Shown: in pieces, positions 32,090 through 32,908 of the stretch
Layout of the letters: each line of letters starts with the position of its first letter
How positions within the stretch are numbered: the stretch's first letter is position 1
DNA from: Escherichia coli
GTDB lineage: Bacteria > Pseudomonadota > Gammaproteobacteria > Enterobacterales > Enterobacteriaceae
Assembly: GCF_003334815.1 (NCBI RefSeq)
Contig: NZ_QOWO01000022.1
Direction: 5' to 3' (one strand)
Length of the DNA stretch: 64,000 bases
Notes under the pieces: generated by a model
What the model was told of the DNA's origin: nothing
What the model saw: the letters and a program-made list of their open reading frames with translations, nothing else
Database searches by the model: none
Made by a program: the position numbers and the translations under genes

Positions 32090-32908
32090 TCACATGACGT
32101 ACTTTTTGTCAGGAAACGAATCCGGCAGCAGAATGAGCGCCACCCCGTCCATTTTCTCCCTCAACGTTTTACGCTGTGCCGGCGGCCAGCGGCGCAGTGC
32201 ATCAGCAAAATCCGCCGGACGCCAGGTGCGAAATTTCTCCTCAACGGCCAGGCGGTTCTGTACCAGGGCATTCAGTACGGCCCGTCCCTGTCTGACTCGC
32301 TTACGCTCATCGCTGAAAATTTCCTTCAGTGCCCGTGCATTGAGAGCAACTACCGAGGCCGGATGCAAATCAGGGAGCCAGACCATCACCCCCTGTGCGG
32401 CAGCGTAGCCGTTCAGGCAGTGCCAGGCGTGGCAGAAGGCACAGAGATGAAAGGGCGGGCCTTCCGGCTGCAGCAGTTCACTTTCATTTTCGCTGAGTGC
32501 ATCTGTTGTGACGATTTGTGACTTTTCCACATGACGCAGGGCCAGTCGCCTGGCCGACAGGCGGGCCTGTGCCAGGGACCGCTCCGCATCCTGCAGGGTT
32601 CGGGTGTGTTTCTTTTTTTCGTCAGCATTTTCCGGTACCGGATGTTTTTTCAGGCGCATCACCCGGGTGAGGTTTTTTTCCAGCAGGACGACCGTATCCC
32701 GGCAGGTGTCAGCCATCTGCTGTAATGGCCATGAATCCTCCAGAATGAAGCGGTGAGTGACGGTCCTGCGACAGCAGGGACAGCGTCCGGGTGTTGAGAG
32801 CACTGGTGGTGGCAGCAGGGATTCACCGCTGAATACCGTGTCCGGTTGCGGGAGCGGGAAAAGCCAGCGTTCCCGGACCGGGGCGATGAGTGGCGGTGTT
32901 TTGTTCAT
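32090..32908 (-). CDS. Cys-rich tra-operon protein (272 aa), possibly DotN/IcmJ-like zinc-binding
   Basis: Cysteine clusters CPCCRR and CAFCHAWHC; sits among the traR-traT-equivalent genes. Confidence 0.45.
   Translation of the reverse strand: MNKTPPLIAPVRERWLFPLPQPDTVFSGESLLPPPVLSTPGRCPCCRRTVTHRFILEDSWPLQQMADTCRDTVVLLEKNLTRVMRLKKHPVPENADEKKKHTRTLQDAERSLAQARLSARRLALRHVEKSQIVTTDALSENESELLQPEGPPFHLCAFCHAWHCLNGYAAAQGVMVWLPDLHPASVVALNARALKEIFSDERKRVRQGRAVLNALVQNRLAVEEKFRTWRPADFADALRRWPPAQRKTLREKMDGVALILLPDSFPDKKYVM

Follow-up and report, generated by a model that had tools for sequence, protein, structure and literature searches.

We found that the minus-strand open reading frame (ORF) at 32090..32908 of a 64,000-nucleotide stretch of Escherichia coli DNA (contig NZ_QOWO01000022.1 of assembly GCF_003334815.1; hereafter the window) is the traT gene of a conjugative IncK2/Z (IncI-complex) plasmid, and that its product is, with a probability that we put at roughly 0.78, the DotN-equivalent, TrbC- and TrbA-bound subunit of a conjugative type IVB coupling complex. 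An earlier reading of the letters alone (the original prediction) had described a 272-amino-acid protein with cysteine clusters, placed it inside a type IVB operon and proposed it as the zinc-binding equivalent of DotN/IcmJ of the Dot/Icm systems and as a partner for TrbC. The 272-amino-acid frame, which is on the minus strand, was borne out, as was its location in the operon, where the gene order is traQ, traR, a traS-like ORF, traT, a 1.5-kb insert and traU. The proposed equivalence with DotN/IcmJ is supported by transitive sequence homology, by fold, by gene position and by the presence of the partner genes.

The 3.5 kb surrounding the gene show 100% DNA identity to many E. coli IncK2/Z plasmids. 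The best DNA match, pMRY16-002_3 (typed as IncK2/Z, MOBP, MPF_I), names the ORF 'conjugal transfer protein TraT' (WP_072148514.1). TraT is ~61% identical over residues 11-271 to IncI1-type TraT; the proteins of the IncI1 plasmids R64, ColIb-P9 and pESBL are orthologues with like gene order and cysteines, although the window carries the IncK2/Z/B/O-type allele and not the IncI1 one. In IncI-complex plasmids, traT was already known to be essential for transfer: R64 transfer requires it (PMC6112013), and in transposon sequencing of pESBL the gene received a score of 1.00 and was classed as 'required for transfer' (PMC4288162). Our result is unchanged in kind from what is known. It makes a modest addition, in that fold, transitive homology and synteny now give quantitative support and a clade-specific hairpin is described. 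We did not find the pairing of TraT with IcmJ/DotN stated in the open-access literature that we searched; the comparisons of R64/ColIb-P9 with icm/dot by Segal and Shuman in 1999, Komano et al. in 2000 and Nagai and Kubori in 2011 are reported to pair TraT with IcmJ. A 2018 paper still called the other subunits of the coupling complex in IncM/IncI systems 'to be characterized'. Plasmids of the IncI complex (I1, K, B/O, Z) rank among the main vehicles of extended-spectrum beta-lactamase and other resistance genes, and how their type IVB systems recognize DNA substrates is poorly understood.

The gene and the parts of its product are as follows.

32090..32908, minus strand: traT, 272 amino acids plus stop, a probable divergent DotN/IcmJ-family protein (ATG-to-stop ORF; DNA identity; DotN fold)
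32771..32782, minus strand: putative first zinc knuckle, CPCC, residues 43-46, with C43/C46 as the CxxC (kept in homologues; aligned with DotN)
32453..32740, minus strand: ~95 residues inserted as compared to DotN (~57-152), a helical hairpin (60-88, 95-123) plus linker (predicted model)
32420..32443, minus strand: putative second zinc knuckle, CAFCHAWH, residues 156-163, CxxCHxxH (conservation; aligns with the DotN C78-C84 cluster)
32093..32416, minus strand: C-terminal helical domain, residues 165-272, with a conserved WLPDLHP (part alignable by sequence to DotN-like proteins)

Relationship of TraT to DotN

The original prediction had named a profile comparison with DotN as its check, and this comparison linked TraT to DotN by way of intermediates. 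In a phmmer search of 1.8 billion representatives, we found that, beyond TraT orthologues, proteins of ~170-330 amino acids match TraT residues 148-269 (E 1e-6 to 5e-4). When six of these intermediates were scanned against the NCBIfam model IcmJ_DotN_IVB (NF038221), all six matched (E 2e-5 to 3e-11). In hhalign comparisons, the TraT family aligns to the intermediates over TraT residues 155-271 (99.6%, E 5.7e-24), and the intermediates align to the DotN family over 163 columns that include both zinc knuckles (98.6%, E 1.2e-15). Sequence homology of TraT to DotN was thereby found transitively. The DotN query sequence was identical to 5x1h_A at 208/208 positions. The direct hhalign match of TraT to DotN is weak (E 7.6e-4); at the second knuckle its register lies within ~3 residues of the one seen in the other alignments. 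A BLASTP match of TraT to DotN 80-178 (E 0.19) is suggestive only by its register, which is the same as in the other alignments. Scans of TraT against Pfam (E<=10), NCBIfam, PADLOC and PHROGs gave no match.

The fold points to the same family. We built an AlphaFold2 model of TraT on a 29-sequence alignment; the model has a mean pLDDT (predicted local distance difference test) of 80.2 and a predicted template modelling (pTM) score of 0.70, is confident from residue 33 and is disordered at residues 1-32. When the model was compared with the PDB using Foldseek, the best eight matches were all DotN chains (5x1h, 5x42 and 6sz9 chain C); of these, 5x42 shows DotN in complex with DotL 590-659, and 6sz9 chain C is DotN in the coupling complex. 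The original prediction named an absence of fold similarity to DotN, along with no interaction with the coupling complex, as its refutation; the predicted model has the three-dimensional fold of DotN. TraT and DotN/IcmJ of Legionella pneumophila (5X1H, 5X42, 6SZ9 chain C) are alike in their two CxxC knuckles, in a helical C-terminal domain that contains LP[DE]L, in being soluble and cytoplasmic, and in having DotL- and DotM-like partners encoded on the same element. TraT has no hydrophobic segment, with a maximum Kyte-Doolittle 19-residue mean of 1.05 at residue 173. The two proteins differ in that they share only ~19% identity, in that the second knuckle is followed by His in TraT (CxxCHxxH) but reads CxxCFF in DotN, and in that TraT serves DNA conjugation whereas DotN serves effector secretion.

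We then consider the cysteines. The CPCC cluster claimed in the original prediction is present at residues 43-46, and the claimed CAFCHAWHC is also present (residues 156-164), but the latter is not conserved as a whole string. Across 29 homologues with identity down to 44%, C156 and C159 are invariant (29/29), and C43, C45 and C46 are kept in all 28 homologues that cover these positions. The histidines of the second knuckle are nearly as constant (H160 in 27/29, H163 in 28/29). In contrast, C164 is found in only 2/29 homologues, as is C69. Because C164 is not conserved, the conserved TraT signature is CxCC ... CxxCHxxH and not one that contains the full CAFCHAWHC; the reverse complement of 32420-32443, which encodes CAFCHAWH, is TGT GCC TTC TGC CAC GCC TGG CAC. 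TraT has 7 Cys and two CxxC motifs, and at least two CxxC motifs occur in only 791 of 100,000 shuffled sequences (0.8%); the conservation of the residues carries more weight than this count. A joint alignment of TraT, the intermediates and DotN shows no variation at C43, C46 and C159, and in it TraT C43/C46 correspond to DotN C46/C49. The four candidate ligands, C43/C46 and C156/C159, are conserved as two CxxC pairs whose counterparts in DotN are C46/C49 and the C78-C84 cluster, with a 3-residue difference between methods in the register of the second knuckle. Published DotN structures contain zinc, which has been used in modelling (PMC12365149), and by homology TraT would bind zinc as well.

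Gene position is also shared. We found that traT follows dotE/dotP-like genes and precedes a large ATPase gene, and that the same placement is seen at loci L002, L003 and L006, in each of which a gene for ~1015-1021 amino acids lies directly after the DotN-like gene. At L002, on a TrfA-type plasmid contig, the order is DotI, DotH, TraO-like, TraP-like, DUF6750, DUF6750, the intermediate P0232, a 1021-amino-acid gene, TraW-like and TraX-like. The order around traT in the window is the same as the order around P0232, which holds the position of TraT. The corresponding Legionella order is icmC-icmD-icmJ-icmB (PMC6761968).

The slot between traR and traU is occupied differently in other plasmids. 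A 187-amino-acid short form on a Klebsiella MPF_I plasmid (L003:3348-3911) matches TraT 155-272 by BLASTP (E 1e-17), and the pOXA-48-like plasmid NZ_CP068884.1 carries the 164-amino-acid Orf38 there (L006:24802-25296). Orf38 of the IncL/M plasmids pOXA-48 and pCTX-M3 lies, as TraT does, between a DUF6750 traR and a traU-like gene (PMC12365149); unlike TraT, it is 164 amino acids long and has no hairpin insertion. Published work has related Orf38 to DotN by structure only: a coupling complex of Orf38, TrbC and TrbA was modelled, and the AlphaFold3 result resembles 6SZ9 (PMC12365149). That 2025 pOXA-48 paper did not connect Orf38 with TraT (PMC12365149), and placing TraT in the DotN family links the IncI protein with this recently described IncL one. 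Across MPF_I plasmids, the traR-traU slot holds at least three very different proteins: the 272-amino-acid TraT, the 187-amino-acid short form and the 164-amino-acid Orf38.

TrbC and TrbA as presumed partners

The window encodes counterparts of both proteins with which DotN would be expected to assemble.

4521..6824, minus strand: trbC, DotL/IcmO-like type IV coupling ATPase, 767 amino acids, presumed partner of TraT (phmmer to 6sz9_A, DotL, E 9.5e-62; NF041447)
7920..9209, minus strand: trbA, DotM/IcmP-like coupling-complex protein, 429 amino acids, presumed second partner (NF033890, DotM_IcmP_IVB)

The phmmer match covers TrbC residues 108-611 and DotL (6sz9_A) residues 100-601, and TrbA matches NF033890 with E 6.5e-20, which is under the curated cut-off. 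TraY/DotA, TraJ/DotB, TraO/DotG, TraP/DotF and TraM/DotI are also encoded in the window. The name attached to NF041447, 'F-type conjugative transfer protein TrbC', is misleading for this DotL/VirD4-like coupling ATPase, because the TrbC of the F plasmid is periplasmic and unrelated to it.

The type IV coupling complex of Legionella includes DotN as a soluble subunit, which attaches to the extension at the C-terminus of DotL and is found together with DotM. By homology with this DotL-DotM-DotN assembly, TraT would bind the region of TrbC that lies C-terminal to the ATPase domain, together with TrbA. The predicted model suggests a small domain that a single structural zinc would hold together through the two CxxC knuckles (C43/C46, C156/C159), and this zinc domain would pack against the C-terminal helical domain. 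The resulting TraT-TrbC-TrbA platform would pass the relaxase-DNA substrate, along with proteins that are transferred with it, on to the type IVB channel. Such a coupling-complex role would explain why TraT orthologues are indispensable for transfer. If TraT belongs to the DotN family, the conjugative ancestors of Dot/Icm would already have had a three-part complex of TrbC, TrbA and TraT. The four cysteines, the WLPDLHP motif and the Arg-rich hairpin offer testable targets.

Several observations weigh against equating TraT with DotN. The direct hhalign comparison of the two gives a probability of just 20-25%. TraT does not match NF038221 (cut-off 100 bits) even at E<=1; this is an equivalog model for Legionella-like DotN, and because TraT falls outside it, TraT is a distant family member and not an equivalog. 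A sequence search of the PDB, whether with TraT alone or with the 29-sequence profile, returned no DotN and only chance matches (E>0.1). Orf38 of pOXA-48 shows no detectable similarity to TraT by BLASTP or hhalign. The ~95-residue insertion of TraT has no counterpart in DotN, so the contacts made by TraT may differ from those of DotN. Finally, a PDB search with the TrbC tail (590-767) detected no sequence similarity to DotL 590-659, the segment that binds DotN; TrbC aligns to DotL no further than residue 611, and over its remaining ~155 residues its sequence is unrelated to that of the DotL tail. Because of this difference in the tails, the partnership of TraT with TrbC is one that we infer from homology.

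The helical hairpin and alternative roles of TraT

The insertion widens the gap between the two knuckles to ~110 residues in TraT, as compared to ~30 in DotN and ~17 in the 187-amino-acid Klebsiella short form. AlphaFold2 predicts the hairpin with high confidence as two helices, 60-88 and 95-123. A conserved A-R-R-L-x-L-R-H motif (residues 119-126) lies at the end of the second helix, and L117, R120, L124, R125 and H126 are invariant. The hairpin is confined to TraT of the IncI/K/B/O/Z-type clade; the relatives P0200 and P0204, which are ~40% identical, have a shorter insert. The length of TrbC shows no clear pattern with respect to the hairpin (767 amino acids here, 730 in pKP20-type plasmids and 695 in IncL plasmids). 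We offer tentatively, and with the odds against it, the idea that the hairpin serves the coupling complex as an arm, specific to conjugation, on which substrates dock, and that it would recruit NikB relaxase-DNA or the co-transferred Sog primase. If so, it would do in one polypeptide what the DotY/DotZ or IcmS/IcmW adaptors do in Legionella.

Alternatively, TraT could share the ancestry and fold of DotN yet work elsewhere in the machine and dock through its Arg-rich helical hairpin on the TraU ATPase, the NikA/NikB relaxosome or the transferred Sog primase. The confident prediction of the hairpin and its invariant residues fit such a role, as do the failure of the TrbC tail to align with the part of DotL that binds DotN and the placement of traT, which adjoins traU while trbC is ~25 kb away. 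However, Legionella icmJ likewise lies beside icmB and far from icmO, and yet DotN binds DotL (PMC6761968). The C-terminal domain common to TraT and DotN is the best-conserved region, and AlphaFold3 modelling of the IncL counterpart gave a 6SZ9-like complex (PMC12365149). We therefore regard docking elsewhere as unlikely and keep to the reading in which TraT is the DotN-equivalent subunit bound to TrbC and TrbA. The knuckles raise a different alternative, in which TraT would be an active HNH-type (beta-beta-alpha-metal) nuclease or a DNA-processing enzyme that acts on the transferred strand. HNH nucleases have a CxxC ... CxxCH signature like that of TraT, and many of the intermediates also have the CxxCHxxH of TraT. 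Many NCBI records call Legionella DotN 'HNH endonuclease', DotN residues 34-83 weakly match an HNH-containing IscB model (E 0.0026), and some of the plasmid DotN-like intermediates keep CxxCG ... IHNLNDNH ... CxxCH. In contrast, TraT has no Pfam match at E<=10 and the intermediates have none at E<=0.001, the position of the catalytic His/Asn hairpin is taken by the helical hairpin in TraT, and the literature searched treats DotN as a structural coupling-complex subunit for which no nuclease role is reported. We rejected an active HNH nuclease, which is very improbable for a protein that shows neither an HNH profile nor the catalytic hairpin. Because the helical hairpin replaces the catalytic stretch and there is no Pfam match, we treat the TraT knuckles as structural, and the HNH-like signature is most likely a degenerate structural remnant. 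The record names, the IscB match and the fuller HNH-like pattern suggest an HNH nuclease as the ancestor of the zinc module in DotN.

The gene name alone could suggest TraT in the F-plasmid sense, an outer-membrane lipoprotein of surface exclusion and serum resistance. This identification is hardly credible and is refuted by the sequence. TraT has no Pfam match whatever, hence none to the F-type TraT family, and it has no hydrophobic signal sequence or lipobox (N-terminus MNKTPPLIAPVRERW; the hydropathy maximum is the 1.05 given above). In IncI-type plasmids, ExcA and TraY are the proteins responsible for exclusion (PMC12365149).

Genes around traT and the traU-traT insertion

The neighbours of traT, in the order of the operon, and the ORFs between traT and traU are as follows.

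33576-34106, minus strand: traQ, upstream neighbour (NCBIfam TraQ, E 1.2e-66)
33131-33529, minus strand: traR, DUF6750, upstream neighbour (plasmid annotation)
32823-33074, minus strand: small traS-like ORF, 83 amino acids, 'hypothetical', which overlaps the first 86 nt of traT
31672-32031, minus strand: ORF, 119 amino acids (RefSeq 'hypothetical')
31292-31675, minus strand: ORF, 127 amino acids (RefSeq 'hypothetical')
30774-31319, plus strand (opposite to the operon): ORF, 181 amino acids (one weak match, phrog_13493, E 2.8e-4; RefSeq 'hypothetical')
27505..30573, minus strand: traU (start as in the ORF list), 1022 amino acids, the next transfer gene downstream (ORF; same slot as icmB/dotO beside icmJ in Legionella)

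We take TraU to be the equivalent of DotO; TraU gave no match in the PDB or NCBIfam, and the equivalence was not confirmed there. On the other side of traT, the DUF6750 protein TraR weakly matches the IncI1 TraQ model (E 0.002), and at L002 both genes in the traQ/traR positions match DUF6750. Because of these two matches, TraQ and TraR look like paralogues. The traS/traT overlap is 17 nt in pESBL, as compared to 86 nt in the window. A database protein named TraS (P0069) is 96% identical to the TraT N-terminus, which suggests inconsistent gene calls or frameshifts at the traS/traT junction.

The insertion that separates traU from traT spans 1.5 kb (30574-32089), whereas the traU-traT gap is only 90 bp in the IncI1 plasmid pESBL. 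Its three ORFs have no Pfam, NCBIfam or PADLOC match. The traU-proximal part has a GC content of 0.34-0.40, as compared to 0.55-0.60 in the flanks, and the insertion may be cargo that was acquired inside the transfer operon.
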